Source: a virus (taxonomy: Duplodnaviria > Heunggongvirae > Uroviricota > Caudoviricetes). From it: a stretch of DNA of 16,968 nucleotides. Below are positions 3,155 to 16,968 of the stretch, one piece after another. Location of the stretch: IMG/VR virus record IMGVR_UViG_2537562190_000012, one strand, 5' to 3'. The translations under genes and the position numbers were made by a program. Each line of letters starts with the position of its first letter. The stretch's first letter is position 1. Below the pieces are notes generated by a model that saw only the letters and a program-made list of their open reading frames with translations, was not told where the DNA came from and did no database searches.

Positions 3155-4051
3155 ATGCCTGCCGTTGACCTTTCCCAGTTACCGGAACCCGCCATCATCG
3201 CGGAGCCTGACTTTGAGGCAATTCTGGCTGACACAAAGGCCATGATGATTGCGTCCTATCCCGCCGAACAGCGTGAAGCCGTTTCCGCCGCGCTGGAGCT
3301 GGAATCAGAACCCCTTAACGTTATCGCTCAAACCATGTCGTTTCGTGAAATGCTGTTACGCCAGCGGGTTAACGAGGGCGCACGCGCCTGCATGTTAAGC
3401 CACGGTTCAGGGACAAACCTGGACAACCTCGCGGGCAATATGAACACAAAGCGCCTGGTTATCACTCCGGCAACGGATACCACCGACGCGGTGATGGAGA
3501 GCGACACCTCGCTGAGACTGCGGGCGCAGCGGGCGTATGACGGCCTGAGTGTTGCAGGCCCGTCAGGCGCATACGAGTATTTTGCACGCAGCGCCAGCGG
3601 TCTGGTGCGTGATGCGCGGGCCATCAGCCCGTCTCCGGCCTGTGTGACGGTTTCCATCCTGTCCACAGAGGGCGACGGCACAGCAACGGAGGCGTTGCTT
3701 AATACCGTTCGCGCTGTTCTGAATGCAGAGGATACCCGCCCGGTGGCCGACCGCCTTACTGTACAGAGCGCCAGAATCGTGACATGGCGGCTGAATGCAA
3801 AACTGTACTTTTACCCCGGCCCGGAATCCGAACCTATTCTGGCCGCGGCGGAATCGTCGTTCAGGAAGTGGCTGTCTGAGCAGGGGCTTATCGGTCAGGA
3901 CGTGGCGTTGTCAGCCATTGCTGCCGCACTGCATGTGCACGGTGTGCAACGCGTGGAGATAATCGAACCCACACAGAATATGGCCATCAGCGACATACAG
4001 GCGGCGCGCTGTGAGTCATTCACCATCAGCGAAGGTGGGCGTAATGAGTAA
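3155..4051 (+). CDS. J: Baseplate assembly protein J (P2 gpJ family)
   Basis: 298 aa, in the conserved V-W-J-I order. Stop overlaps the I start. Confidence 0.9.
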   Translation: MPAVDLSQLPEPAIIAEPDFEAILADTKAMMIASYPAEQREAVSAALELESEPLNVIAQTMSFREMLLRQRVNEGARACMLSHGSGTNLDNLAGNMNTKRLVITPATDTTDAVMESDTSLRLRAQRAYDGLSVAGPSGAYEYFARSASGLVRDARAISPSPACVTVSILSTEGDGTATEALLNTVRAVLNAEDTRPVADRLTVQSARIVTWRLNAKLYFYPGPESEPILAAAESSFRKWLSEQGLIGQDVALSAIAAALHVHGVQRVEIIEPTQNMAISDIQAARCESFTISEGGRNE

Positions 4052-4574
4052 TTCACTGTTACCGCCATCAGCCAGCAATTTCATGCGTTGTGCCGAAGCT
4101 GTCGGAACGCGCATTACAGACATTCCGGTAGACCTCAACACGCTGTGGTCGCCGGACACCTGCCCGGTGCATCTGCTGCCTTATCTCGCCTGGGCATTTT
4201 CCGTTGACCGCTGGGATCGCAACTGGCCGGAAGAGACAAAGCGACAGGTTATTCGTGATGCATGGCTGATACACCGACACAAAGGGACCATCAGCGCACT
4301 GCGCCGGGCCATTGAGCCGCTGGGATACCTCATTCGTGTGTCTGAGTGGTGGGAGTTCGGCGGAGAACCGGGAACATTTACCGTTGAAGTCGGCACGCTG
4401 GACAGTGGCGTGACGGAGGAAATGTATCTGGAAATGGAGCGGTTGATTGCTGATGCCCGCCCGGTCAGCCGCCACATGACAGGGCTGAATATCATTCAGG
4501 AGATCCCGGGGGATATTTTCGCGGCGGCAGCAACTTACGACGGTGAAGTCATTACCATTTATCCGGACGATTAA
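4044..4574 (+). CDS. I: Baseplate / tail fiber attachment protein I (P2 gpI family)
   Basis: ATG 4044 (176 aa) overlaps the J stop and is preceded by an SD-like GAAGGTGGG. The track ORF starts at an upstream in-frame GTG 4011. Confidence 0.85.
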
Positions 4575-4576
4575 GC

Positions 4577-6847
4577 ATGAGTACCACAACACGAAAATTT
4601 AAAACCATTATCACTGATACTGGTGCCAAAAAATTAGCTCAGGCAGCCGCGCCAGATGGTAATCCTGTCCACCTGACTCACATGGCCGTGGGCGACGGTG
4701 GCGGCACGTTGCCCACACCAGACAGTAAGCAGACCCGTCTGGTGCATGAGGTGTGGCGACATACTGTTAATCGCGTCATCCTGGACGCAACACATCAGAA
4801 CCGCATTATTGCGGAGCTGGTTATTCCTCCTGAAACGGGCGGATTCTGGATCCGGGAAATTGGTGTATTTGATGAGCACGGCGATTTGATCGCGGTGGGC
4901 AATACTGCCGAAAGTTACAAGCCAGCCGTTGCCGAAGGATCCGGACGTGCACAAACATTTCGCACCATTCTGACCGTATCCAGCACTGCCACCGTGGCGC
5001 TTACCGTGGATAACACCATGGTTATGGCCACAGTGGATTACGTGAATGACAAACTGAAAGAACATGAACAGTCACGACGTCACCCGGACGCCTCGCTGAC
5101 CGCAAAAGGCTTTGTTCAACTCAGTAGCGCCACCAACAGCACGTCTGAAGCACTGGCCGCAACGCCGAAAGCGGTCAAGGCAGCCTATGACCTTGCTAAC
5201 GGGAAATATACCGCACAGGACGCCACTACAGCGCGAAAAGGCATTGTCCAGCTCAGTAGCGCCACCAACAGCGATTCAGAAACGCTGGCGGCAACACCAA
5301 AGGCGGTAAAGGCAGCCTATGACCTGGCTAACGGGAAATACACCGCACAGGATGCAACAACAGCACAGAAAGGGATAATCCAGCTAAGCAGCGCGACCAA
5401 CAGCACATCTGAAACGCTTGCCGCGACACCAAAGGCAGTAAAAACAGCCTATGACAATGCTGAGAAACGTCTGCAGAAAGATCAGAACGGTGCGGATATC
5501 CCTGGCAAAGACACCTTTACGAAAAATATTGGTGCCTGCCGTGCCTTCGGTGGGTCAGTAAGCACAACAACAGGAAACTGGACGACTGCACAGTTTATCG
5601 AGTGGCTGGATTCTCAGGGAGCATTTAACCATCCATACTGGATGTGCAAGGGTTCCTGGTCTTATGGCAATAATAAAATCATTACTGATACTGACTGCGG
5701 TAATATTCATCTCGCCGGAGCTGTCATTGAAGTAATGGGGATAAAGTCAGCGATGACGATCCGCATTACCACACCGACCACCTCCACTGGTGGTGGAACA
5801 ACTAACGCCCAGTTTACCTATATTAATCACGGAACAGATTATTCACCTGGCTGGCGAAGGGACTATAACTCCAGAAATAAGCCAACGGCATCAGAGATCG
5901 GGGCGTTACCGTCAGGTGGAACAGCAGTATCATCAGTTAATCTGGCTTCAAAAGGTCAGGTAACCGCGCTGACAGACAATACGCAGGGGGCAACAGGTCT
6001 TGAGTTATACGAGGTGTATAACAACGGATATCCAACAGCGTATGGAAATATCATTCACCTGAAAGGGATGACAGCCGTTGGCGAAGGTGAGTTACTCATC
6101 GGCTGGAGTGGTACAAGCGGTGCTCATGCTCCGGCATTTATTCGTTCACGACGGGATACGACCGACGCAAACTGGTCGCCGTGGGCGCAGCTTTACACCT
6201 CGGCTCATCCTCCTGCAGAGTTTTATCCAGTCGGTGCACCAATCCCGTGGCCATCAGATACCGTTCCGTCTGGTTATGCCCTGATGCAGGGGCAGACTTT
6301 TGACAAATCTGCCTACCCGAAACTTGCAGCCGCTTATCCGTCAGGCGTGATCCCTGATATGCGTGGCTGGACGATTAAGGGCAAGCCCGCCAGTGGTCGT
6401 GCCGTATTGTCTCAGGAACAGGACGGCATTAAATCGCACACCCACAGCGCCAGCGTATCCAGTACGGATTTGGGTACGAAAACCACATCGTCGTTTGATT
6501 ACGGGACGAAAACAACCTCACTATTTGACTATGGGACCAAAACTACCAGTAACGCCGGGAGTCACACGCATTCAATACCAACATCAGATGGTGCAAACCA
6601 GTGGGGGAAAATTCCACTGACATCTGGGCGTCTGGCAACTCAATATACATCAGCAACAACAGGTTCCTCTGGCTCACATTCTCATACTGTAGGTATTGGT
6701 TCTCATCAGCACACTGTCGGTATTGGTGCACACACGCACTCCGTTGCGATTGGCTCACATGGACACACCATCACCGTAAACGCTGCTGGTAACGCGGAAA
6801 ACACCGTCAAAAACATCGCATTTAACTATATTGTGAGGCTTGCATAA
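4577..6847 (+). CDS. H: Tail fiber protein H (P2 gpH-like N-terminus; repeat-rich shaft; His-rich C-terminal tip)
   Basis: 756 aa. The N-terminal 170 aa or so closely resemble P2 gpH ([39 protein letters not shown]). Internal 44-aa tandem repeats and a C-terminal HxH-rich domain. Confidence 0.92.
5105..5480 (+). repeat. In-frame tandem repeat inside H: 132-nt (44-aa) unit, two full copies plus a partial third
   Basis: Unit KG[FI][VI]QLSSATNS[TD]SE[AT][27 protein letters not shown][RQ] begins at 5105, 5237 and 5369. Copies differ at many synonymous third positions. Confidence 0.85.
6473..6550 (+). repeat. In-frame 30-nt (10-aa) tandem repeat inside H, about 2.6 copies
   Basis: Peptide [10 protein letters not shown] / [10 protein letters not shown] / GTKTTS read directly from the translation. 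Nucleotide copies are diverged at synonymous sites. Confidence 0.8.
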
Positions 6848-7425
6848 TGGCATTCAGAATGAGTAAACAATCACGAACCCTCAAAATTTATAATCTGCTG
6901 GCCGGAACTAATGAATTTATTGGTGACGGTGACGCATATATTCCACCTCATACAGGTCTACCTGCAAACAGTACCGATATTGCACCGCCAGATATTCCGG
7001 CTGGCTTCGTGGCTGTTTTCAACACTGATGAGGCATCGTGGCATCTCGTTGAAGACCATCGGGGTTATACCGTCTATGACGTGGCTTCCGGCGACGCGTT
7101 ATTTATTTCTGAACTTGGCCCATTACCGGAAAATGTCACCTGGTTATCCCCGGAAGGGGAGTTTCAGAAGTGGAACGGTACATCCTGGGTGAAAGATGCA
7201 GAAGCAGAAAAACTGTTTCGGAGCCAGGAGGCGGAAGAAACAAAAAACAGCCTGATGCAGGTAGCTAGCGAGCATATTGCGCCACTTCAGGATGCTGTAG
7301 ATTTGGATATTGCGACGGAAGAAGAGGCATCGTTACTGGCTGCATGGAAGACATATCGGGTATTGTTGAATCGTGTTGATACAACAGTAGCAGCGGATAT
7401 TGAGTGGCCAGTCGCCCCACAATAA
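6847..7425 (+). CDS. G: Tail fiber assembly protein G (P2 gpG family)
   Basis: 192 aa. ATG overlaps the H stop (TAATG). Position immediately after the tail fiber gene. Confidence 0.85.
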
Positions 7426-7468: not shown

Positions 7469-8041
7469 CTATTTATACAATACAACACCGCTCTTTTTAG
7501 TTATATATGTGCAGTTCGATGGTATATCTTTATTTATAAAAGACATTGCGCCTATTTTTACATTATCCCCGATTTTACGTGATAATCCAATGATGCAACA
7601 ATTAGCTCCGATATCAACGTTACTACCAATTTTTACTCTTGAACCAGGTATGTCACCATCTATCTGTCCAATCGTAGTATTCTGTCGTAATACCAGATTT
7701 TCACCTGCATCAACAGCAAAATGAACAACAATTCCAGCATGATGGGGAATTGTTAACCCTTTTCCAATATTTGCTCCCAATCCTATTTCACAACCAAATT
7801 TGTTAATTATTTTACTGTTTAACTTTTTGGCTGCTTTTTTATGTAATTTATTACCATTAATATACATTTCGTTAGCCAACCGCCACCAGAAAAGGAAATT
7901 CCGGTTACGCTGCTTTTTCTCTCTTAAAAGCCTCCAGATATCCATACGTTTCCGCCGAATTACTTCATGTTTCCAGAAGTTTTTTAAATTAGTAGAGTTC
8001 CCAAATAAAACAAAGTGAATTGCCATTAAGTAAGACAGCAC
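7469..8041 (-). CDS. Hexapeptide-repeat (left-handed beta-helix) acetyltransferase, CysE/WcaB-like; cargo (moron) gene in a low-GC island
   Basis: ORF 7469..8074 in the track. Preferred start is GTG 8041 because AAGGAG (8053-8048) lies 6 nt upstream; ATG 8026 and GTG 8074 are alternatives. C-terminal half has serine-acetyltransferase-type hexapeptide repeats (GANIGKGLTIPHHAGIVV ... IGSNVDIGANCCIIG ... IGDNVKIGAMSFINKDIPSNCTYI). Strongly AT-rich compared with the flanking phage genes. Confidence 0.75.
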   Translation of the reverse strand: MLSYLMAIHFVLFGNSTNLKNFWKHEVIRRKRMDIWRLLREKKQRNRNFLFWWRLANEMYINGNKLHKKAAKKLNSKIINKFGCEIGLGANIGKGLTIPHHAGIVVHFAVDAGENLVLRQNTTIGQIDGDIPGSRVKIGSNVDIGANCCIIGLSRKIGDNVKIGAMSFINKDIPSNCTYITKKSGVVLYK

Positions 8042-8092
8042 GAAAATCTCCTTAATTATTATTTCAGACCACACATGTTATAAGGTTAAGAG

Positions 8093-8197: not shown

Positions 8198-8692
8198 TCA
8201 GAGCAGCCCCTTAACTGAGCTGGCCGCGCTATTAAGGGATGATGTCACCTTATCTTTGAAGCCGGACAACATATCGCTGAACGATGAGGATTGCAGGCGC
8301 TCCCGCAAATCCTCATCACAGCGTTCAAGAGTCAGTGAAAATTCTATCTTTTTCGCCTTACCGTAGCGATCAAACTCGGAGCGGGTCGTATTCGTTTCAG
8401 TCAGGACATACATGCCGTAAATCTGCCCGACGCCATCAATCAAAGGCCAGGGTCGTCCTGTATACGCCTGCGTGGTCAGCAGCGACAGCGACACTTCGCC
8501 ACCTGTAATTTCAGGATAAAGCACACCAGAAAGAACGATGCGATCATCACCTGCACCGATATACTGCCAGCTTGCTGAACGGTTAACGCGTTCATTTTTC
8601 ACATGCCGCCAGCTTTTGTTTTGCTGTAACTGCTGATGCGGCAGCGTGCGCAGCTCAAAAACAAACATGCCGTAGATCATCATCATGGCCAT
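8198..8692 (-). CDS. U: Tail protein U (P2 gpU family)
   Basis: 164 aa, with gpU-like motifs (FELRTLP, WRH, LSGVLYPEITGG, WPL.DG.G.IYGMYV). Immediately downstream of T on the same strand. Confidence 0.85.
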   Translation of the reverse strand: MAMMMIYGMFVFELRTLPHQQLQQNKSWRHVKNERVNRSASWQYIGAGDDRIVLSGVLYPEITGGEVSLSLLTTQAYTGRPWPLIDGVGQIYGMYVLTETNTTRSEFDRYGKAKKIEFSLTLERCDEDLRERLQSSSFSDMLSGFKDKVTSSLNSAASSVKGLL

Positions 8693-8698
8693 GACTCC

Positions 8699-11515
8699 TC
8701 AATCTTTATCGTAAAAACTGCCACGCCCGGCACGGGCACGCCGTTCCATTTCTGCCCTGACCATTTCACCGACCAGTTTCGCCAGTTCGCGGGGATTCTG
8801 CGTAACAACGTTATGCAGATGAACATGAATTTCACCACCAAATCCGGAGGCAACAGGCTCCCGGTTACGGGAAGTTACAGGAACTGATGCCACTGGAGAT
8901 CGTATGGCCTCCGCCACCGGGCGGGAGCTGGCCGCAACAACAGGGACCAGCGCCGGAGGCAGCGGTGCCGGGACCACGGGGGTGATATTAATTGCGGGGG
9001 CAGGCTTACTGACCTGCGCAATCTTCCGCTCCTGCCACTCCCCACGAACAGCAAGTGCGCGGGGCAGGTTCTTAAAGACAATATCGCCGGGGCCAATGCG
9101 TTTTTTCGTCTCATCAACCAGCTTACCTGTGTTATCAGCAATTTTGCTGAGTCTGCGTAGCGTCCCGGTATTGCTGTCTGTGAGCGGTTTGTTGTCTTTG
9201 GGTTTATCACCTCCGGTGCCATTGCCATTTTCCACAGGCTTCGGCGGATTGATTTTCGCCAGGTCCCCCTGAAGTAAGGCAACCTTGTCCCGAAGAATGG
9301 CCGCACGCTGTGCGTCTTCGATTTTCTTGCGCGCCCTTTCAGCTTCATCCGGAAGGACGCCAAGTTTTTCAAGTATCCACGCCAGCGTATCCAGTAGCAT
9401 TTTTGCAGGTGTCAGAACAAGTTGTAACGCACCGCCAAGAACGTTACCGAATATCTCGCCAGCACTGGTACATTTATCCAGCGTTTCCTTGCTGGACTCC
9501 ATCGGTGACAGCAGCGATTTAAACCAGTTAAACACCTGGCTGATCCCGCTTCCGATTGCGTCAAAAACAGGGCCAAACCGTTCAAAGGTTTCGCGCAACG
9601 GGGTCAGCCTTTCCATAATCCCGCTGAACACCCCGGCAAAAAATGCCCTGATGGGATCCCAGTATTTCCAGATAAGAACGGCAGCTCCGGCAAGCGCAGC
9701 CACGATAAGACCAACCGGACTGAACAGCGCCCCGATAGCGCCTCCCAGCAAAGAAACGGAACCCGTCAGCATTCCCCACAGCGCAGGCAACACCCTGACG
9801 ACATTCATTGACCGGGTAAGAATGTCAAAACCAAGACGCAGGGTGGCCAGCTTTCCGTAAAGCACCCCAATAACCAGCGACAACGAGCGAATCGTTGCAG
9901 TCATTGCCAGCAACGCACCGCCTGCTATCAGTAGCTGGCGTGTCAGTACCGGATGGGCCTGCGCCAGCGAGGTGATTTTTTCAAGCACCCGCGTGAGCCA
10001 CTGCGTGACAGAACGCAGCGGACCGTCAACCAGATCACTGATGCGAATACGAAGACCTTCCCATGCGCTGTCGAGATTTTTCAGGTCCCCATCAAGATTA
10101 TCGGCCATTACTTTTGCGACGCGATCGACCTCTCCCCTTGCCCCCTGCAATTCTCTGGTCAGTTTTTGCAGCTCTCCTGAACCAGCCGCCGCAACAAGCG
10201 TCTGCAAACCAACGAACGCCTCTTCTCCGGCGATGTCCTTGAAGAAGGAAACCTGGTCCACCTGTCCGTATTTTTGTGTCGCCTTATAGAGATCAAGCAG
10301 CACATCCTCCATCGGGCGCATTTTGCCCCTGGCGTCAGCAACTGACACCCCCAGCTCTTTCAGCGCATCAGCCGCAGCTTTTGGCGGTGATGCAAGGCGG
10401 GACAGACTTGCGCGCATGGCCGTACCAGCATCGCTTCCACGAAGACCATTACTGGCAAGCATCCCGGCCATGGCTGCCGCTTCTTCAAGACTGATACCAA
10501 GTTTTGCGGCAACCGGACCGGTATACTTCATGGTTTCGCCCAGCGCGCGTAAATCAGTATTGGTCCGGGTGAATGCCGCTGTCAGCGTATCGCCAACCCG
10601 GTCCATTTGATCGGCTGTCAGGTTGAACTGTGTGAGGATATTGGAGCCTATATCAGCCGTCTCGCCGAGTTCGACGCCACCTGCCAGCGCCATATTAAGA
10701 ACACCGGGCAATGCGGCCTGAATGGCCTGCGGAGTAAAACCAGCCATTGCCAGAAAGCTCTGCCCACTGGCGGCATCACTCGCAGTAAACGGTGTTTCAG
10801 ATCCAAGTTTTAACGCCTGCTCACGCAGCGCCTTAAACTGCGGGCTGTTTTTGTCGATTCGCGTCAGTGCCTGAACGCGGGACATCTCTTTGCCGAACCC
10901 GATCGCAGGCTGCAAAAAACGCCCGGCAGCATAGCCGCCCGCCGCTGCCGCACCAATTGCCAGTGCACCACCTGTTTTCAGTTTTCCCGCTGTTTCCTGC
11001 GCGCGCGAATACCGCTCACGCGCCCGCGTTACACGCGCAAGCGCCTGCCGTTCGCGTTCAAGCTGGTTGTTGTACTGTTCGGTGCGTCTGATGGCCTGCT
11101 GGATGGTGTTATCGCTGCCTGTCAGGGAAATGCCGTGGCGTTTCAGCTCTCCGCCAAGCTCCCGCATTTTTTGAATTTCCCGTGTGCGCGATTCATTCAG
11201 GCGTTCAAGCCGGGTGCTTAACTGCTGCATCAGCTTTTGTTGTTTTTCGCTGAGCACTGTACCCGTACGTTGTAACTGATTAAGGGCGTTAAGCTGGCGT
11301 CGTGCTTTCACGATGCCAGCATCCGCTTTACTGACAGCGTCACGGGCGCGCTCAAATGAACGCGCCTGACGCTCGAGATTTTTAATCGCCCCCTGCGTTC
11401 GCTGGATGGAGTCACCAAACTGCCCCATCAGGCGGCGGGCGTTTTCGGCAGGCCGGGTCAGCCTGTCAACGGCGCTGAAAGCGACCCGGATATCAAGAGT
11501 CTTCATTATCTGCAT
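8699..11515 (-). CDS. T: Tail tape measure protein T (P2 gpT family)
   Basis: 938 aa; long helical, A/L/Q/R-rich protein with central hydrophobic segments. Follows the E/E' chaperone genes. An alternative ATG lies at 11506. Confidence 0.9.
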   Translation of the reverse strand: MQIMKTLDIRVAFSAVDRLTRPAENARRLMGQFGDSIQRTQGAIKNLERQARSFERARDAVSKADAGIVKARRQLNALNQLQRTGTVLSEKQQKLMQQLSTRLERLNESRTREIQKMRELGGELKRHGISLTGSDNTIQQAIRRTEQYNNQLERERQALARVTRARERYSRAQETAGKLKTGGALAIGAAAAGGYAAGRFLQPAIGFGKEMSRVQALTRIDKNSPQFKALREQALKLGSETPFTASDAASGQSFLAMAGFTPQAIQAALPGVLNMALAGGVELGETADIGSNILTQFNLTADQMDRVGDTLTAAFTRTNTDLRALGETMKYTGPVAAKLGISLEEAAAMAGMLASNGLRGSDAGTAMRASLSRLASPPKAAADALKELGVSVADARGKMRPMEDVLLDLYKATQKYGQVDQVSFFKDIAGEEAFVGLQTLVAAAGSGELQKLTRELQGARGEVDRVAKVMADNLDGDLKNLDSAWEGLRIRISDLVDGPLRSVTQWLTRVLEKITSLAQAHPVLTRQLLIAGGALLAMTATIRSLSLVIGVLYGKLATLRLGFDILTRSMNVVRVLPALWGMLTGSVSLLGGAIGALFSPVGLIVAALAGAAVLIWKYWDPIRAFFAGVFSGIMERLTPLRETFERFGPVFDAIGSGISQVFNWFKSLLSPMESSKETLDKCTSAGEIFGNVLGGALQLVLTPAKMLLDTLAWILEKLGVLPDEAERARKKIEDAQRAAILRDKVALLQGDLAKINPPKPVENGNGTGGDKPKDNKPLTDSNTGTLRRLSKIADNTGKLVDETKKRIGPGDIVFKNLPRALAVRGEWQERKIAQVSKPAPAINITPVVPAPLPPALVPVVAASSRPVAEAIRSPVASVPVTSRNREPVASGFGGEIHVHLHNVVTQNPRELAKLVGEMVRAEMERRARAGRGSFYDKD

Positions 11516-12031
11516 TCCCGCTGCGAAGTGCCGCCCGCTCGCGCCAGCTAACCACTTCGCCGGGCGTCATCATGAAGATTTCGGCGGGCGACCAGTTAAA
11601 AATGGCGGCAATATCCGCCACCAGATCTTCGATGTGCTCAAAGCACACCAGGGTGATTACGCTGCCGTCTCCTGCACGCTCTTCGCGCCAGAGTCTGGCT
11701 CGCTCATAAAATTTACAGCCACAGCGCACAACTGAATAAAATCGCGTGACGACATTTTTTTAATCATCACTTCATCCAGTCGTGGCGAGGTCACGCGAGG
11801 CAACAGCATAAACATGGTATCCGCTTTCAGATTCAGCACATCAGACAGCGACAGACCACGCAGGGATCCAGCCTGCTCAATAGCCCCGGTGATCTCCACA
11901 TACGTGATTTTTTCGCCACCACGCTCAATTGGTCGGGTCAGTTTTACGCCACGTTCGACAGCCATATCCTCACCTGCCGTCACATCATCCGCCACGGTGT
12001 TATTCCGGTATCGAGTATCGATCTCTTTCAT
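11493..12031 (-). CDS. E': Tail assembly chaperone E+E' (predicted -1 frameshift fusion of E with the downstream overlapping frame)
   Basis: The downstream ORF 11493..11729 is in the -1 frame relative to E and ends overlapping the T start. An A7 run (minus strand, 11761-11755) sits in the overlap. The arrangement mirrors P2 E/E+E' and lambda G/GT. Confidence 0.6.
11657..12031 (-). CDS. E: Tail assembly chaperone E (P2 gpE family), zero-frame product
   Basis: 124 aa ORF with SD AAGGAG 7 nt upstream of ATG 12031. Lies between the tube gene and the tape measure gene. Confidence 0.8.
   Translation of the reverse strand: MKEIDTRYRNNTVADDVTAGEDMAVERGVKLTRPIERGGEKITYVEITGAIEQAGSLRGLSLSDVLNLKADTMFMLLPRVTSPRLDEVMIKKMSSRDFIQLCAVAVNFMSEPDSGAKSVQETAA
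11755..11761 (-). other. Candidate slippery site (A7 run) for the E/E' -1 frameshift
   Basis: Minus strand reads ATT AAA AAA ATG in the E frame. The -1 frame has a TAA immediately upstream of the run and then stays open into E'. Confidence 0.5.
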
Positions 12032-12086
12032 CAGTTGTCTCCTTTTCAGTCAGAGGCGGCGCACTGCGCCGCCTGCATATTACTTA

Positions 12087-12599
12087 TCAGCCAAGCCCAA
12101 GCGCGGAACGGATACGGTCAGGCACAATGTCCTTGCCGTCCTTCCGGTAGATGTGGTTCAGCAGGTCGATTTCCCACAGCGGACGATCGTTAACGCTCAG
12201 CTTGTAGTAGGTGTTTTTGACAGCGTAAGTGTGTGATGTGGCTTCGCCCTGTTTGGCTTCCCCCATATCAATTTCCGTCACACGCCCGCGCATCTCGATT
12301 TCATACAGATCACTTTCTGCATCGGTGTAGTATTCACCCGCAAAACGCAGCAACGTGCCGTCAATCGTGCCGCCATATTTAAGGAACAGCTCATGAACTG
12401 CGCCCCCCATGACAAAACTCGCATCAAGCGCAGAATCATCAAGACCGAGGTCGATACTCACCGCCCCCATCATGCCACCGCCACGATAGCTTTCAGTTTT
12501 GCGCGTCAGTTTAGGTGGAGTGACGGATGTCACCTTACCCACTTCGTTTTCACCATTCACAAACAGCGTAAAAAAGCGAAGATGTTTTGGTACAGCCAT
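12087..12599 (-). CDS. FII: Tail tube protein FII (P2 gpFII family)
   Basis: 170 aa, with gpFII-like motifs (VTPPKLTRK.E.YRGGGM, RFAG.Y, GEAKQGE). ATG overlaps the FI stop (TGATG); SD GGGAGGTG upstream. Confidence 0.9.
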   Translation of the reverse strand: MAVPKHLRFFTLFVNGENEVGKVTSVTPPKLTRKTESYRGGGMMGAVSIDLGLDDSALDASFVMGGAVHELFLKYGGTIDGTLLRFAGEYYTDAESDLYEIEMRGRVTEIDMGEAKQGEATSHTYAVKNTYYKLSVNDRPLWEIDLLNHIYRKDGKDIVPDRIRSALGLG

Positions 12600-13783
12600 C
12601 AGACACCTCCCAACACCGCAAATGCGGGATCAAAGTATTCATCAGTAAACGTCTGGTAAAGCTCCATATCTTCCAGCGGAGGAACGGGCGTATATTTGTA
12701 GCGAATACGCACACGCCCCTGACGTAAATCCGTGGTGCTGTTATCCACCACGTCATACCAGCACGACGCGCCAATCAGTTTCCCGGCAGTAACCAGCGAA
12801 TCCAGTTTTGCCCTGATGGCACTGATAACATCCTTCACGTTCGCAGGCGTCAGTGGACTGTCGATGGTTTCAAACTGCGCTTCCGCAATTGAATCAGCCA
12901 GCACCTGTGCGGTTCGGGTATACACCTCAAAGATGTAGGCGTTCGTTTCCGGTGTGCGGTTGCCCCAGAAGCGGAACCCGTTGCGACGAATAATGGTCGT
13001 GATTTCTTTGTTATTGAGGCTGTTGGCATCACTGTCTTCGGCCTGCAACGACCAGAACACATGCCTGGACATTCCCAGCACATTTTTAACCGGAACATTG
13101 GACAGCGATTTGTGCCAGCCCTGCTCATGGTCAATGTACGCACGAAGGCCGCACGCATAAGCAGGCGCGGGGAACGTTTCGTTTTCGCCACTTTTCGGGT
13201 TGTAGGCGATGAAGTCAGGCCATAAGAGCATCACTTCACGTTCGTTGAATTTCTGGCGGTAGGTAATCGCTTCAGCCATCGTGTTACAGCCGTGACATGA
13301 GGCATACACAAATGCGCGCAGTTTACCCGCAATCACGCACAGGGATTTTGTCACCGCCTCCGTGTCCAGCTCCGGCGCGGCCAGAATACGCGGACGGTAT
13401 CCGATGCTTTCATCCTGCTCTGCAACAAGCAGCGCATACATCCCCGTATAGCTGCCGTCATCCTCAGAACCACCGATAACCAGTTGATCCTGCGTCTTAC
13501 CGTCTTCTTCTTTGTGTTCAGCCACGCGAACGACGATCACCTTTGTGCTCACCTGGTCTGCGATGGCCTTAAGCGCACGATAAAGCGTCCCCGTTGTTCC
13601 GCATTTTCCCAGCACGTCATTGACGCGGGTCAGCAGTGTAGGCTTGTTCAGCGGGAACAGCTTCGCGTCCGCATCATCCGCCGTTGCCACGATACCGATA
13701 ACGCTGGAATCAACATCGTTAATCGCTGTTACCAGGTCGGTATTTTCCGTAACACGGGCACCATGAAAACGAGTTTCACTCAT
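12599..13783 (-). CDS. FI: Contractile tail sheath protein FI (P2 gpFI family)
   Basis: 394 aa, with motifs matching gpFI as I recall it (FPLNKP, LRAFVYASCHGC, DQEQGWHKSLSNV, IRRNGFRFWGNRT, YTPVPPLE). SD AAGGGG upstream of ATG 13783. Confidence 0.93.
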   Translation of the reverse strand: MSETRFHGARVTENTDLVTAINDVDSSVIGIVATADDADAKLFPLNKPTLLTRVNDVLGKCGTTGTLYRALKAIADQVSTKVIVVRVAEHKEEDGKTQDQLVIGGSEDDGSYTGMYALLVAEQDESIGYRPRILAAPELDTEAVTKSLCVIAGKLRAFVYASCHGCNTMAEAITYRQKFNEREVMLLWPDFIAYNPKSGENETFPAPAYACGLRAYIDHEQGWHKSLSNVPVKNVLGMSRHVFWSLQAEDSDANSLNNKEITTIIRRNGFRFWGNRTPETNAYIFEVYTRTAQVLADSIAEAQFETIDSPLTPANVKDVISAIRAKLDSLVTAGKLIGASCWYDVVDNSTTDLRQGRVRIRYKYTPVPPLEDMELYQTFTDEYFDPAFAVLGGV

Positions 13784-13940
13784 AGCTTCAGCCCCTTGTA
13801 TCCGTTAAATGATTCGGCAACAATCATCACCCACCACGCGCGTAATCTCACCCCTGCGCCGTTCTCCCGACCCGGCGACAACAAAAAGCAGTAACCCCCT
13901 CCGCACGCACATGCGACCATGCCGCACAGGGAGGGAACAG

Positions 13941-15050
13941 ATGACCGACACCACCATGCAATTGCTCAGTCAGGGCACAGACCCCGTAAAAATGCCGGAT
14001 TTTGATATTCTCGCGGAGGGTAAAACGCTGTCCGGCGTGGCAGAGCGCCTGATGAGCCTGTCGCTGACCGACAACCGGGGATTTGAGGCAGACCAGCTCA
14101 CCATCACGCTGGATGATGCGGATGGTCAGTTGCGGCTACCGCCACGGGGCGCGCGCCTGACGGTTCTCATTGGCTGGAAAGGCGAACCGCTGACAGAAAA
14201 AGGCTCTTACATTGTTGATGAAATCGCACACGAAGGACCGCCGGACAGGCTGACTGTTTCAGCCAGAAGCGCAGATTTTCGGGATGAATTTAACGTTAAA
14301 CGTGAGGTGTCCTGGCATGATGTGACCGTTGAGCGTGTGGTATCCGCCATCGCTCATCGGTACGGTCTGAAACCGCAAATCAGCGAAATGCTGATGGATA
14401 TCGAAATCGACCACGCCGACCAGACCGAAGAAAGTGACATGTCCTTCCTTACGCGCATGGCGGAAATGCTGGGCGCAATCACCACGGTAAAAAGCGGTAA
14501 TCTGTTATTCATCATGCCCGGCGGTGGCGTGAACGCACAGGGCCAGCCGTTGCCATCGTTCGCCATCACACGCAGCAGCGGCGATCGCCATCAGTTCCGC
14601 ATTGCTGACCGCGAGGCGTATACGGGGGTACGCGCTTACTGGCTTGATCTTAATTACGGGAAAAAGAAAAAAGTCAGCGTGAAACGCCGCAAACCGCCAA
14701 AACCGAAAAAAGAGAAAAGCAGCAGCCGTGAAGGTGATTATATGGAAGGCGCGGAAGGCAATGTGTTTGTGTTACGCAAGACTTATCAGAACGAGCAGGC
14801 AGCAAGACGCGCAGCGGCGGCAAAGTGGCAACAACTACAACGCGGAGCCGCATCATTCTCCATCACGCTGGCACGTGGACGAGCAGAACTCTACCCCGAA
14901 ATGCATGGCACGGTAACAGGATTTAAAAGCGAGATTGATAATCAGGACTGGATTATTGCAAAAGCCGAGCACACCATTGATAACAGCGGCTTTACCACGC
15001 AGCTTGAGCTTGAGGCAAAAATCCCGGAATGGATAGCGGAAACAGAGTGA
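13941..15050 (+). CDS. D: Tail protein D (phage late control gene D family)
   Basis: Track ORF 13809..15050. ATG 13941 is preferred because AGGGAGG lies 5 nt upstream. Protein has gpD-like features and a lysine-rich internal segment. Confidence 0.85.
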   Translation: MTDTTMQLLSQGTDPVKMPDFDILAEGKTLSGVAERLMSLSLTDNRGFEADQLTITLDDADGQLRLPPRGARLTVLIGWKGEPLTEKGSYIVDEIAHEGPPDRLTVSARSADFRDEFNVKREVSWHDVTVERVVSAIAHRYGLKPQISEMLMDIEIDHADQTEESDMSFLTRMAEMLGAITTVKSGNLLFIMPGGGVNAQGQPLPSFAITRSSGDRHQFRIADREAYTGVRAYWLDLNYGKKKKVSVKRRKPPKPKKEKSSSREGDYMEGAEGNVFVLRKTYQNEQAARRAAAAKWQQLQRGAASFSITLARGRAELYPEMHGTVTGFKSEIDNQDWIIAKAEHTIDNSGFTTQLELEAKIPEWIAETE

Positions 15051-15092
15051 GCAACTTAGAATAGCGGCAGCACCACGTTAAAGGAGGTCGCT

Positions 15093-15353
15093 ATGTTCCG
15101 TTGTCCGCTTTGTGGCGCATCTGCCCGTATCCGCACCAGTCGTCCGGAAAATGATTCAAACACCGTGCGGCAAAAGTATTACCAGTGTAACAACCTGGAA
15201 TGCGGCGTATGCTTCTCAACACTGGAAGCTTTCCATAAATTCACATCGAAACACGCCTCCGGCGTTCACTCATCAGAAGGTATCCCGTGGCATGAGCTGC
15301 CAGCTTCACACAGGGGAAACAATCAGATGAGTTTGCCTTTACCTCAGAATTAA
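15093..15353 (+). CDS. ogr: Ogr/Delta-family zinc-finger late transcription activator
   Basis: 86 aa. SD AAGGAGG 5 nt upstream of ATG. N-terminal CPLC ... QCNNLEC Cys4 arrangement as in P2 Ogr. Position after D. Confidence 0.85.
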   Translation: MFRCPLCGASARIRTSRPENDSNTVRQKYYQCNNLECGVCFSTLEAFHKFTSKHASGVHSSEGIPWHELPASHRGNNQMSLPLPQN

Positions 15354-15491: not shown

Positions 15492-16327
15492 TCAACCTAG
15501 CAAGTGATAGGTTAGCGCCTCTCCAACAAAGGAGCAAGCGCTTGTATGGGTCCACCACATATTGCAATTTTTATTCTCTTTTAAAATATATTCCACGGGC
15601 GTCATTAGTGCGAGCGCCTTGTGGGGTCTTTTGCTGTTATACAGCACCAGATATTCCGCCAGCTTCTGGTTAAATAGCGCCAGATCTTCAAAGAGTAAAA
15701 TCTCATTAAATTCAATAAACTGCTCTCTTAACGTCCGGTTAAAACGTTCACAGATAGCGTTCATTTTTGGCGTGTAGGGATAGGTCCAGAGGTGTTTGAT
15801 AGCGGCTTCCTGCAGCGTTTTGTCGAAGTTTCCCAGGAACTCTTTTCCGTTATCTGTGATTATCTGGCTGATACCGACCGGGAACAACCGGGCTGCGCGG
15901 CTGAAGAAGTGATTGACGATATCACTGTTGAGTGACGGCACAGCCAGCGCCAGCGCGTAATTGCTGCATTCGTCGATCATGGTGATGACATAGCGACGCA
16001 GTTCGCCCATTCTGAGCTCAATGGCGTCCATCCCAATGAGCTCACCTGTCTTTACCGGGCGGTAGTGCTTTGGCCTGCGGGGTTTGGCAGACCGCTTTTT
16101 GACAAGCAGTGCCTTCCCCCGCGATCCCAGACGCACAGGTATCATCCGCATTTTATCATGTGCGGCAGCGATCATTCTGCCGATGGTGGAAACACTCGGA
16201 CAGGCCAGATAGCGCTGTTCGCACCAGGGCTTCAGGCGAACAAAAATCTGCTCTTTACCGAGGTTCGGCAGCTCTGTCCTGAGGCGTCGAATCTCTTTCA
16301 GCACATCGGGATGCCAGTGTTTTTTCG
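15492..16327 (-). CDS. IS transposase OrfB (integrase-core / DDE domain), probably made as an OrfAB fusion by -1 frameshift
   Basis: Frame is open from 16343 downward. Integrase-core-like motifs (ITDNGKEF, YPYTPKMNAICERFNRTLRE). It is in the -1 frame relative to OrfA, with the heptamer A AAA AAC (minus strand, 16325-16319) in the overlap. Confidence 0.7.
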
Positions 16328-16579
16328 TCGCACCAGAGGTGCCTTACTGTGCGGGATTAGCCCCTCAGGTCCTTCCTTGTTCAGTAACTGACGCCACCAG
16401 TAAAGCGTGCGGCAGGACACGCCAAAGGCTTCAGAAGCTGCAGAAATACCGTGTTTATCCCAGAAGTGCAGAGCCTTCATTCTCATTGTTGCTATATCAG
16501 CCATCACTGAAAGCCTCAACGCATAATCGGCCGTTTGGTAGTATTTAGGATAGCCAACCATCAGATGCTGCATTTGCAT
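16298..16579 (-). CDS. IS transposase OrfA (N-terminal helix-turn-helix part)
   Basis: 93 aa. Motif AFGVSCRTLYWWRQLLNKEGPEGLIPHSKAP resembles the N-terminal HTH of IS481-family transposases. SD AGGGGAG upstream of ATG 16579. Confidence 0.7.
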   Translation of the reverse strand: MQMQHLMVGYPKYYQTADYALRLSVMADIATMRMKALHFWDKHGISAASEAFGVSCRTLYWWRQLLNKEGPEGLIPHSKAPLVRRKNTGIPMC

Positions 16580-16872
16580 AGTGCAATCTCCCCTTACTTA
16601 TCCGGAGGCAATTGCAATATCTCTGTGAACTTACACAGTGCTATGTCGCAAAAATCGCTTACGGCCATCACGTTCTGCGTGACGGCAATCCTCATCATCT
16701 GGATGTTGCACGGTTCGCTGTGTGAAATACGGATGAGCTTCTGGGGAGCGGAGTTTGCGGCGTTCTTACAGTGTAAGCAGTAAGGAAACCGCGACGGGGG
16801 AGCAATCCCCCGTCAATCGGTTGCCAGGGTAAGGTCGATAAGGCACCCTATCTCACAGACATGAACAACAAA

Positions 16873-16904
16873 CCCGCAGCATAAAAACTGCGGGTTTTCT
16901 TTTT
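16873..16904 (+). terminator. Rho-independent terminator in the 3' flank
   Basis: Stem CCCGCAG (16873-16879) / CTGCGGG (16888-16894) with an 8-nt loop, followed by TTTTCTTTTT. Confidence 0.65.
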
Positions 16905-16968
16905 GGTGTCCTCACCGACTTGAAACAGTGATCAGACTATAAGACAAAGCCCACAATGTAGCGGGCTT

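Follow-up and report, generated by a model that had tools for sequence, protein, structure and literature searches.

Tail fibre gene H of a P2-like Escherichia coli prophage: a probable mosaic ending in a T4 gp37/lambda Stf-type needle

Gene H, its neighbours and its prophage

The window, a 16,968-nucleotide stretch of viral DNA, contains a tail fibre gene, H (Table 1), annotated as 'phage tail protein' (WP_000108490.1) in NZ_CP027388. H occupies the same gene position as in the P2-type operon (V W J I H G): it is preceded by gpI, and its end overlaps the start of the tail fibre assembly gene G by one base. Its neighbours belong to the Pfam families Tail_P2_I and Baseplate_J upstream and Caudo_TAP downstream; NCBIfam has no model matching H or G. 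The initial annotation listed a series of sequence features, all of which are present in H. The span it gave begins at 5105, where the repeat array opens; the gene itself starts at 4577. H and the downstream G are 100% identical in ~20 independent complete E. coli (STEC) genomes, and at least 1000 contigs encode precisely the same H protein (P0121), which rules out an assembly artefact.

Table 1. Positions in the window of gene H, its subdomains and the adjacent chaperone gene
Feature	Residues	Position	Strand	Basis or detail
Tail fibre gene H	756 aa	4577..6847	+	ORF list, translation
N-terminal baseplate-attachment module, P2 gpH type (putative)	1-172	4577..5092	+	PF12571, identity to P2 gpH and Shae_phiSM H
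Three tandem 44-aa PF03406 'phage tail fibre repeats'	173-216, 217-260, 261-304	5093..5488	+	TRF, Pfam, HMM
Distal shaft block, lambdoid Stf/Mu S' related	293-547	5453..6217	+	PDB and Stf matches
gp37 D10 'collar', N-terminal part	548-619	6218..6433	+	PF07484, T4 alignment
Needle stem, ascending strand	620-665	6434..6571	+	HxH at aa 621, 663; 10-aa repeat
10-aa repeat, x2.6	631-660	6467-6556	+	three successive 10-letter stretches
Tip subdomain, putative receptor-contacting loop	666-694	6572..6658	+	T4 alignment, DNA cassette
Needle stem, descending strand	695-739	6659..6793	+	HxH at aa 701, 710, 719, 728
gp37 D10 collar, C-terminal part	740-756 and stop codon	6794..6847	+	T4 alignment; ends in the shared C-terminal 15-mer
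Tail fibre assembly chaperone G/Tfa, lambda Tfa type	192 aa	6847..7425	+	PF02413, E 7e-41

Gene H is intact and ordinary for the tail fibre of a P2-like E. coli prophage, and it is built from modules shared among phages. The prophage that carries it is apparently complete, of the P88/Xuanwuvirus type, and belongs to Shiga-toxigenic E. coli. Its genes include an integrase, a repressor-like gene, replication, packaging, head, lysis and tail genes, and D and ogr; an apparent truncation of gpD is an annotation choice, since the ORF aligns to residues 15-384 of P2 D. An IS3 element and a hok/gef gene lie at the right end of the prophage.

The interval from G to gpU encodes no invertase and no second fibre/TFA pair (ORFs, Pfam and annotation), and the Mu gix crossover sequence had no match at up to three mismatches. 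With neither an invertase nor a gix-like site, a relic of an invertible fibre segment of the Gin/Cin/Pin type, as found in Mu, P1, P88 and Shae_phiSM, was rejected. Likewise, the minus-strand FI-U block was rejected as an inversion: it lacks meaningful flanking inverted repeats, and the same order occurs in P88-like phages.

N-terminal module and shaft

The N-terminal region of H, described as P2-like in the initial annotation, matches PF12571 at aa 6-153 (E 7e-54, Pfam) and is 65% identical to P2 gpH over aa 7-172 (66% over aa 7-291), which bears that description out. Residues 1-172 are 97% identical to H of Xuanwuvirus Shae_phiSM, a P88-like Citrobacter phage. Past aa 291, BLASTP found no similarity between H and P2 gpH, so that H does not end in a P2/Mu-S-type receptor-binding domain; aligned with P2 gpH, lambda Stf and T4 gp37, it combines a P2-type N-terminus with a gp37/Stf-type C-terminus.

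The N-terminal module is followed by the tandem 44-aa repeats that had been noted initially. Tandem Repeats Finder places them at 5104-5455 (period 132, 2.7 copies, 82% matches, no indels), and Pfam recovers PF03406 in three stretches (total E 3.6e-62), the units having the ~42-aa length and 22-letter pattern of that family. A repeat HMM built in this analysis, by which copies were counted, locates the cores at aa 177-210, 221-254 and 265-298. The shaft is indeed expanded, as the initial annotation held: H carries three PF03406 copies, P2 and Shae_phiSM two, and lambda Stf and Mu S one each. Close relatives of H carry either two copies (712 aa) or four (796 aa), so that copy number is still changing.

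Divergence at synonymous sites was likewise confirmed. Of the 44 residues, 37 are the same in copies 1 and 2, and 12 of these 37 codons differ. Nucleotide identity is 80% between copies 1 and 2, 65% between 2 and 3, and 58% between 1 and 3; within the cores it is 85% for copies 1 and 2 and 70-74% for copy 3 against either. The tail of copy 3 also differs from that of the other two (TAYDNAEKR...).

This divergence had been read as the mark of an old duplication or of selection against recombination. In its full form, this explanation derives the three repeats from an ancient in-situ duplication within the lineage, the synonymous differences being kept by selection against recombination between copies. 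Copies 1 and 2 agree with it: both are of the 'internal' type, recognised by its 15-letter end, each matches the other best within the set of copies compared, no donor above 87% was found for either, and many identical residues are encoded by different codons. The explanation fails, however, for copy 3, which shares 99% of its nucleotides with the terminal copy (copy 2) of mEp460 Stf and sits in a block 97% identical to lambdoid Stf genes; moreover, identity to Shae_phiSM drops from ~97% to ~85% where the repeats begin and reaches background past them, and the copy number of relatives is not fixed. We therefore consider an in-situ origin of the whole array unlikely. The match to the mEp460 terminal copy indicates instead that copy 3 came in with a recombined lambdoid block, and together with the stepwise fall in identity to Shae_phiSM it points to the repeat array as a joint of recombination between lineages.

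The distal shaft block is 98-99% identical to residues 538-792 of lambdoid mEp460 Stf (97% at the DNA level). Its first part, aa 293-450, matches PDB 8JU3, a Mu S/S' chimera (domain E 1.5e-68, phmmer against PDB), and is 69% identical to Mu S' 17-168. The likeness of aa 293-547 to Mu S' and lambdoid Stf was absent from the initial annotation.

Predicted C-terminal needle and tip loop

The C-terminal 209 residues of H are 65% identical to T4 gp37 811-1026 over 216 columns (BLASTP), and aa 549-756 align full-length with residues 28-242 of the 2XGF structure (E 6.4e-78, phmmer against PDB). Identity differs by subdomain: the collar reaches 85% and the stem 62%, against 14% for the tip loop. PF07484 (Collar) is found at aa 553-600. 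The N-terminal part of the collar is 83% identical to T4 gp37 811-881, and its C-terminal part matches 1010-1026 at 16 of 17 residues (94%), with the last 15 residues the same in H, T4 gp37 and lambda Stf. Between these halves, the ascending strand is 60% identical to T4 882-931 and the descending strand 64% identical to 960-1009.

The stem contains six HxH motifs, the count behind the multiple motifs reported initially. Given the published domain boundaries and seven iron sites of T4 gp37 (PMC6957217), these align with T4 positions 883, 929, 966, 980, 989 and 998, that is, six of the seven iron rungs; all four rungs of the descending strand are kept, and the rung at 915 is absent, H915/H917 being replaced in H by a third FDYGTKTTS unit. 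All 12 histidines of aa 620-739 fall in HxH pairs, six motifs were reached in none of 20,000 whole-protein shuffles, and the H.H columns are invariant across 45 relatives. The assignment to a gp37-type tip, which had been made from motif likeness, is thus carried by direct homology to 2XGF and by motifs in register, and the full-length match counters the objection that the HxH region could be unrelated to fibre-tip domains. The 10-aa repeat is present in about 2.6 copies as noted initially, although it belongs to the ascending strand of the needle and not to the shaft; Tandem Repeats Finder did not report it at the nucleotide level. With the H915/H917 rung missing and five residues deleted from the descending strand relative to T4 gp37, the geometry of the H needle would differ in detail from that of T4.

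Turning to the tip loop, aa 666-694 share only 4 of 28 positions with T4 932-959. None of the T4 OmpC-patch residues K945, I951 and Y953 is conserved, and among the T4 residues for which replacement by alanine eliminated plaques (PMC6957217), only H929, H931, I933, G938 and G943 are kept. In a set of 120 relatives, the stretch from the final HxH of the ascending strand to the initial one of the descending strand is hypervariable, with nearly invariant flanks. By its sequence, the loop is a specificity variant unrelated to the tips of T4 and lambda, and for this reason no receptor can be inferred from it. The earlier suggestion of a host range unlike that of P2 stands insofar as the receptor-binding end differs, P2 gpH having neither HxH motifs nor similarity to H past aa 291; it does not extend to naming a receptor.

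At the DNA level, the tip loop is enclosed in a cassette of ~200 bp (about 6512-6708 in the window), which appears as a gap in relatives that are otherwise 91-97% identical. DNA comparison found no counterpart in mEp460, PhiR29 or lambda, and no DNA match was found in 50,697 phage records, where tblastn also gave no significant match (best E 0.02). The cassette is present in 52 of 5426 complete E. coli genomes (~1%), and all occurrences found are chromosomal prophages. At aa 676, the allele in the window encodes Trp in place of the Gly that this tip carries on other scaffolds, and the Gly-to-Trp change was seen almost only on the P2-like scaffold. Because residue 676 aligns with T4 G942, an essential Gly (PMC6957217), the W676 allele could be impaired rather than adapted, although the tip alignment is too weak to rely on.

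The absence of the tip from the 50,697 phage records, its occurrence in chromosomal prophages, the IS3 element and hok/gef gene and the Trp substitution would all suit a prophage that no longer makes particles, with H an unexpressed relic acting as a reservoir of fibre modules for superinfecting phages. Against this, no morphogenesis ORF is broken in H, G or their surroundings, the prophage gene set from integrase to ogr is present with gpD untruncated, H is 100% conserved across O103, O45 and O121 strains, and the relatives P88, Shae_phiSM and PhiR44_2 were deposited as phage genomes. We regard a defunct prophage as quite improbable.

An AlphaFold2 monomer model of aa 541-756, made with a 45-sequence alignment, was confident in the collar only (pLDDT 84-89 over roughly aa 551-590); the needle, the other part of the C-terminus for which structure prediction had been suggested, reached pLDDT ~40-55 (model mean 58.7, pTM 0.34). 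The top Foldseek match of this model was 2XGF (E 2e-17), but at a TM of 0.30 and an rmsd of 34 A, so the match is driven by sequence and not by the modelled fold. As the needle would be an obligate metal-bound trimer, a monomer model is uninformative about it, and the Foldseek match is not independent evidence. Finally, a T4 gp12-type short-tail-fibre domain, with a collar and a single His-coordinated zinc site in place of a gp37 needle, is effectively refuted: the PF07484 collar is common to gp12, the short-tail-fibre chain 9CUY matches aa 549-623 (E 5.7e-8) and the gp12 entries 1OCY and 5IV5 are weak Foldseek matches, but the gp12-type similarity stops with the collar, whereas the gp37 match spans all 208 residues (E 6e-78), aligns six HxH rungs and ends in the same 15-mer.

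A probable modular fibre and its relation to known systems

Homology between Stf and gp37, with Tfa as an assembly factor, has been stated before (PMC7291167), and a 'T4- and lambda-based RBP family' was named by Magaziner & Salmond 2022 (PMC9659904). Its members share ~215 conserved distal residues, diverge mainly around T4 932-965 and are followed at once by a gp38/Tfa gene. On sequence, the locus fits this family feature for feature: H ends in a ~215-aa region collinear with gp37 811-1026, its collar is split by the needle insertion, the HxH ladder is in register on both strands, divergence is concentrated in the specificity region (14% identity against 62-85% in the flanks), and a gp38/Tfa-type gene follows immediately.

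Together, these features very probably make H the mosaic trimeric tail fibre of a P2-like prophage, assembled from at least three exchangeable modules and ending in a T4 gp37/lambda Stf needle. The first, genus-specific N-terminal module would dock the fibre on the gpI/gpJ baseplate; the second, comprising the three PF03406 repeats and the Mu-S'/lambdoid-Stf-type block, would form the shaft; and the third would be the receptor-binding needle. From their homology to crystallised T4 gp37, the final 209 residues are predicted to form a collar bearing an antiparallel beta needle of six strands. Six metal ions (Fe2+ in T4) would staple the needle core, each octahedrally coordinated by one HxH from each of the three chains, and the 29-residue loop at the far end would contact the host receptor. 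Needle folding would depend on the lambda-Tfa-type chaperone encoded immediately downstream. The architecture of H, its homologies, the HxH register, the module boundaries and the distribution are shown directly. Trimerisation, metal binding, the need for the chaperone and the tip's contact with a receptor are inferred. The PF03406 repeats and the collar and stem flanks are probably homologous-recombination joints at which distal modules are swapped between unrelated phages, which would account for the extra diverged repeat copy and the private tip cassette.

Only the short, putatively receptor-contacting loop is an uncharacterised variant. A bolder and rather doubtful proposal is that the loop recognises a receptor other than the OmpC and LPS-glucose receptors of T4, lambda and PhiNP, and that the Gly-to-Trp change at aa 676 is an adaptive switch of specificity; the six-rung needle with three FDYGTK units would then form a structurally distinct subclass of the gp37 needle.

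That P2, Mu, P1, lambda and T-even phages have mosaic tail fibres has been recognised since the early 1990s; it was reportedly described by Haggård-Ljungquist in 1992 and Sandmeier in 1994. As both this mosaicism and the gp37/Stf-type tip family with its linked chaperone (PMC9659904) are already known, the locus carries little weight for basic biology. Its practical value is modest: it offers a clean natural example of fibre-module joints, located at the PF03406 repeats, where the collar begins and in the HxH segments that flank the tip, and its uncharacterised tip variant, from prophages of STEC O103, O45 and O121, is a candidate for host-range engineering of T4, lambda or tailocins.

Among known systems, the tip stands closest to side tail fibres of the lambda type and to fibres of other prophages, not to T4 itself. 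Lambda Stf is 66% identical over H aa 550-756, and lambda stf-tfa DNA is 85-88% identical across collar, stem and tfa; with mEp460 Stf, DNA identity reaches 97% over aa 220-645, and it is 91% for the part that runs from aa 712 through Tfa. The FDYGTK 10-aa repeat also occurs in ~2.6 copies in ur-lambda Stf; it is common to lambda Stf and, in part, T4 gp37. Lambda Stf differs in its N-terminal PF08400 (PF12571, the P2 type, in H), its eight HxH motifs against six and its longer tip insertion. G is 87% identical to lambda Tfa, 26% identical to T4 gp38 (E 3e-15), and 44% identical to P2 G and Mu U over the C-terminal 68 aa only; the chaperone of H is therefore of the lambda Tfa type, whereas that of T4 is gp38. 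To our knowledge, lambda-type systems do not need gp57A. A closely matching cassette is found in an unrelated myovirus-type prophage (L010), where aa 548-756 are 99%, Tfa 96% and the neighbouring acetyltransferase 94% identical. This acetyltransferase accompanies the Tfa gene in 265 genomes with various tips, so the link is not tip-specific, and a tie between the acetyltransferase and the tip in the window was rejected.

Outside the needle, T4 gp37 is unrelated to the rest of the H fibre. Family members bind their receptors through the tip: OmpC and LPS for T4, OmpC for lambda and LPS Glc-II for PhiNP. With Mu S' (G(-) orientation; PDB 8JU3 and 5YVQ), H shares the stretch aa 293-450, and neither the receptor-binding end of Mu S' nor its TFA (U') is present in the prophage of the window. 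P2 gpH resembles H in its PF12571 N-terminus followed by PF03406 repeats. The H proteins of P2 and Shae_phiSM have two such repeats, a Mu-S-type C-terminus (...NGTWYNVAQV) and no HxH, and H differs from them on all three counts. In the slot where the prophage of the window has the acetyltransferase, a DNA invertase and alternative fibre segments are found in P88 and Shae_phiSM.

Gene H and its prophage setting

The tail fibre feature placed at 5105–6847 by the initial annotation lies within a single open reading frame, gene H, but 5105 is the first base of its repeat array and the gene itself begins at 4577. The stop codon of H and the start of the assembly gene G share one base (6847; region 6845–6849), which suggests translational coupling of fibre and chaperone. 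Complete Shiga-toxigenic E. coli genomes (O103:H2, O45:H2, O121) contain a prophage that matches the window at 100% identity. In one of these, NZ_CP027388, the prophage extends from an integrase beside yecA to D and ogr, with genes for replication, packaging, head, lysis and tail in between, and therefore looks complete. H–G occurs at 100% identity in about 20 independent complete genomes and the exact H protein on at least 1000 contigs, which excludes an assembly artefact.

The window DNA is nearer the P88-like genus Xuanwuvirus than P2 itself: Citrobacter phage Shae_phiSM, Escherichia phages 500465-2 and PhiR44_2, and P88 match 46–73% of it at 93–96% identity, and P2 coordinates 14–30 kb gave a single short match. 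The U–FI block lies on the other strand from H/G and D/ogr, whereas FI-FII-E-T-U-D is collinear in P2. A rearrangement was rejected because P88 and Shae_phiSM have the same tail gene order, making the minus-strand block a genus trait; no inverted repeats of note flank it. The RefSeq call for gpD covers only 266 aa (14250–15050), with a small pseudogene fragment upstream. From residue 63 on, the longer frame aligns with P2 gpD residues 15–384 at 49% identity, and gpD appears intact and its RefSeq annotation truncated. Between ogr and a tRNA-Leu/Cys/Gly cluster, the right end of the prophage carries a Hok/Gef-family toxin gene and an IS3-family transposase.

Coordinates of H, its parts and neighbouring or comparison features (window nucleotides unless prefixed)
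Feature	Coordinates	Strand	Details
Baseplate_J, P2-type, upstream of H	3155–4051		
Tail_P2_I, P2-type baseplate gene, upstream of H	4011–4574		
Tail fibre gene H	4577–6847	+	756 aa
H N-terminal region	H aa 1–172		97% Shae_phiSM H; 65% P2 gpH
Three PF03406 repeats	H aa 173–304		Pfam and own repeat HMM
H middle region	H aa 293–547		98–99% lambdoid mEp460 side tail fibre
Part of the same region	H aa 293–450		69% Mu S'; PDB 8JU3 domain, E 1.5e-68
H C-terminal region	H aa 549–756		T4 gp37 tip 2XGF, E 6.4e-78; 65% T4 gp37 813–1026; 66% Ur-lambda Stf 530–774
Tip cassette	~6512–6708		H nt 1936–2132
G, Caudo_TAP tail-fibre-assembly gene	6847–7425		192 aa
Hexapeptide acetyltransferase	7469–8074	-	201 aa
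U, T, E, FII, FI	8198–13783	-	
D/ogr	13809–15353	+	
gpD, longer frame	13809–15050	+	
Hok/Gef toxin and IS3 region	L001:22967–25186		roughly window 15543–16968 and beyond
Invertase downstream of tfa, mEp460_ev081	L007:5352–5942		
Invertase downstream of tfa, Shae_phiSM	L009:9178–9777		
Needle–Tfa–acetyltransferase cassette	L010:6001–8271		GCA_002966045.1 contig PTRX01000003.1
Acetyltransferase within that cassette	L010:7699–8271		94% identical to that of the window

N-terminus, repeats and module exchange

The proposed P2 gpH-like N-terminus is borne out by PF12571 at aa 6–153 and by 66% identity to P2 gpH over aa 7–291. Beyond aa 291 similarity to P2 gpH is absent, and P2 gpH contains no HxH motif. 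The 44-aa tandem repeats were also found: Tandem Repeats Finder delimits an array at 5104–5455 (period 132, 2.7 copies, 82% matches, zero indels), and Pfam and our repeat HMM each recognise three PF03406 units. Nucleotide identity among the three copies is 58–80%. Their divergence at synonymous sites, noted earlier, holds for copies 1 and 2, which share 37 of 44 residues with different codons at 12 of those 37. The copy number is two in P2 and Shae_phiSM and one in lambda Stf and Mu S. Most close relatives of H have three copies (756 aa); others have two (712 aa) or four (796 aa).

An old duplication had been suggested for these repeats. Copy 3, however, matches the terminal repeat of mEp460 Stf at 99% nucleotide identity but copies 1 and 2 at only 70–74%, which argues that at least this copy was acquired with a recombined distal block rather than through duplication in place. 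Between copies 1 and 2 nucleotide identity in this comparison is 85%, with no donor found closer to either than the other copy; they may stem from an older duplication or from another exchange.

Against Shae_phiSM, H DNA is ~97% identical to about nt 530, ~85% over the repeats and at background past nt 740. From about nt 660–790 to nt 1935 it is 97% identical to the lambdoid Stf genes of mEp460 and PhiR29, which lack a counterpart of the next segment, comprising the distal stem and tip; after nt 2132 identity returns at 91–92%, through Tfa. Searches of 50,697 phage records turned up neither a DNA match nor a significant protein match to this tip cassette, which is present in 52 of the 5426 complete E. 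coli genomes. The whole H–G query matches 4880 genomes, owing to widespread collar, stem and Tfa parts. A prophage of an unrelated myovirus type (L010), with a different baseplate (Phage_Wedge1, Sheath_initiator, Baseplate_J) and a 358-aa fibre, has a needle 99% and a Tfa 96% identical to those of the window and a similarly close acetyltransferase; thus, the three genes travel together between unrelated phage types. Together, the identity breaks and the L010 match show that H is an at least three-way mosaic, joined within the PF03406 repeats, where the collar begins and in the HxH stretches on either side of the tip.

The left-handed-beta-helix acetyltransferase is CysE/WcaB/EpsC-like, yet falls under every NCBIfam cut-off, and its GC content is ~34% versus 50–55% for the phage. 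It occupies the moron slot held by Z/fun in P2 and by an invertase in P88 and Shae_phiSM. Tfa and acetyltransferase genes are neighbours in 265 of the 5426 E. coli genomes, in combination with several different tips. The gene may serve in lysogenic conversion as a putative modifier of surface polysaccharide. The serine recombinase/DNA invertase genes of mEp460_ev081 and Shae_phiSM indicate invertible fibre switches in these fibre-sharing relatives, unlike the window prophage, which has no invertase.

The predicted HxH needle and its apical loop

The proposed gp37-type receptor-binding tip is upheld by the match to 2XGF and by six HxH motifs (aa 621, 663, 701, 710, 719 and 728) in T4 register. 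All 12 histidines within aa 620–739 sit in HxH pairs, and as many motifs arose in none of 20,000 whole-protein shuffles, in keeping with the multiple C-terminal motifs first noticed. On the T4 gp37 boundaries for the collar D10 (811–881 and 1010–1026), stem (882–931 and 960–1009) and tip (932–959; PMC6957217), identity is 85%, 62% and 14% (4/28), respectively. The T4 needle has seven HxH motifs, and seven iron ions are spaced along it (PMC6957217); six of the seven motifs are retained in H, where a third FDYGTKTTS unit replaces rung H915/H917, and the descending strand has lost five residues. The 10-aa repeat (three units, aa 631–660; the same 2.6 copies in lambda Stf) is therefore real but belongs to the ascending needle strand, not to the shaft as initially annotated.

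An AlphaFold2 model of aa 541–756 (alignment of 45 homologues) had a mean pLDDT of 58.7 and was confident for the collar only; Foldseek ranked 2XGF first, with E 2e-17 but TM 0.30. Since needles of this type are obligate intertwined trimers, this prediction is uninformative, and the argument for a predicted gp37-type needle is carried by sequence homology to the solved structure.

In 120 relatives of the C-terminal domain, collar and H.H columns show little or no variation, and hypervariability is found in the ~30–35 residues that separate the last ascending HxH from the first descending one; six rungs are most common (88), with seven in a minority (23). The T4 OmpC-patch residues K945, I951 and Y953 are not kept in H, nor are several residues required for plaque formation in T4 (PMC6957217). 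Homology gives no basis for assigning a receptor. Residue 676 (codon 6602–6604) is Trp (NQWGK) in 110/111 P2-like H proteins and Gly (NQGGK) in 28/29 proteins that join this tip to another fibre scaffold; it aligns, within a tip alignment of only 14% identity, with the essential glycine G942 of T4 (PMC6957217).

Chaperone linkage and comparison with known fibres

G shares 87% identity with lambda Tfa and 26% (E 3e-15) with T4 gp38; its likeness to P2 G and Mu U is limited to the C-terminal 68 residues. Its position fits the published linkage in which a gp38/Tfa-type gene always lies directly downstream of this T4/lambda-based tip family (PMC9659904). The H–G pair likewise fits the reported resemblance of lambda Stf to T4 gp37 tip domains and the functional interchangeability of the two fibres (PMC7291167).

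Beyond the observed architecture, homology, metal-ligand register, linked chaperone gene, module boundaries and distribution of H, precedents from T4 and lambda suggest how the fibre may work. H would trimerise and dock on the baseplate through its N-terminal domain, G would fold the needle, six metal ions would staple its core, and the apical loop would bind a surface receptor that sets host range. The initial reading of a P2-type N-terminus, repeat shaft and gp37-type tip thus stands overall, refined as to the 5105 start, the 10-aa repeat and copy 3. That P2, Mu, P1, lambda and T-even phages exchange fibre segments is textbook knowledge, reported by Haggård-Ljungquist et al. (1992), Sandmeier (1994) and Hendrix & Duda (1992). 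H, whose particular tip loop is an uncharacterised variant, is an ordinary case of the T4/lambda-based receptor-binding-tip family already in print (PMC9659904), here on a P2-like fibre.
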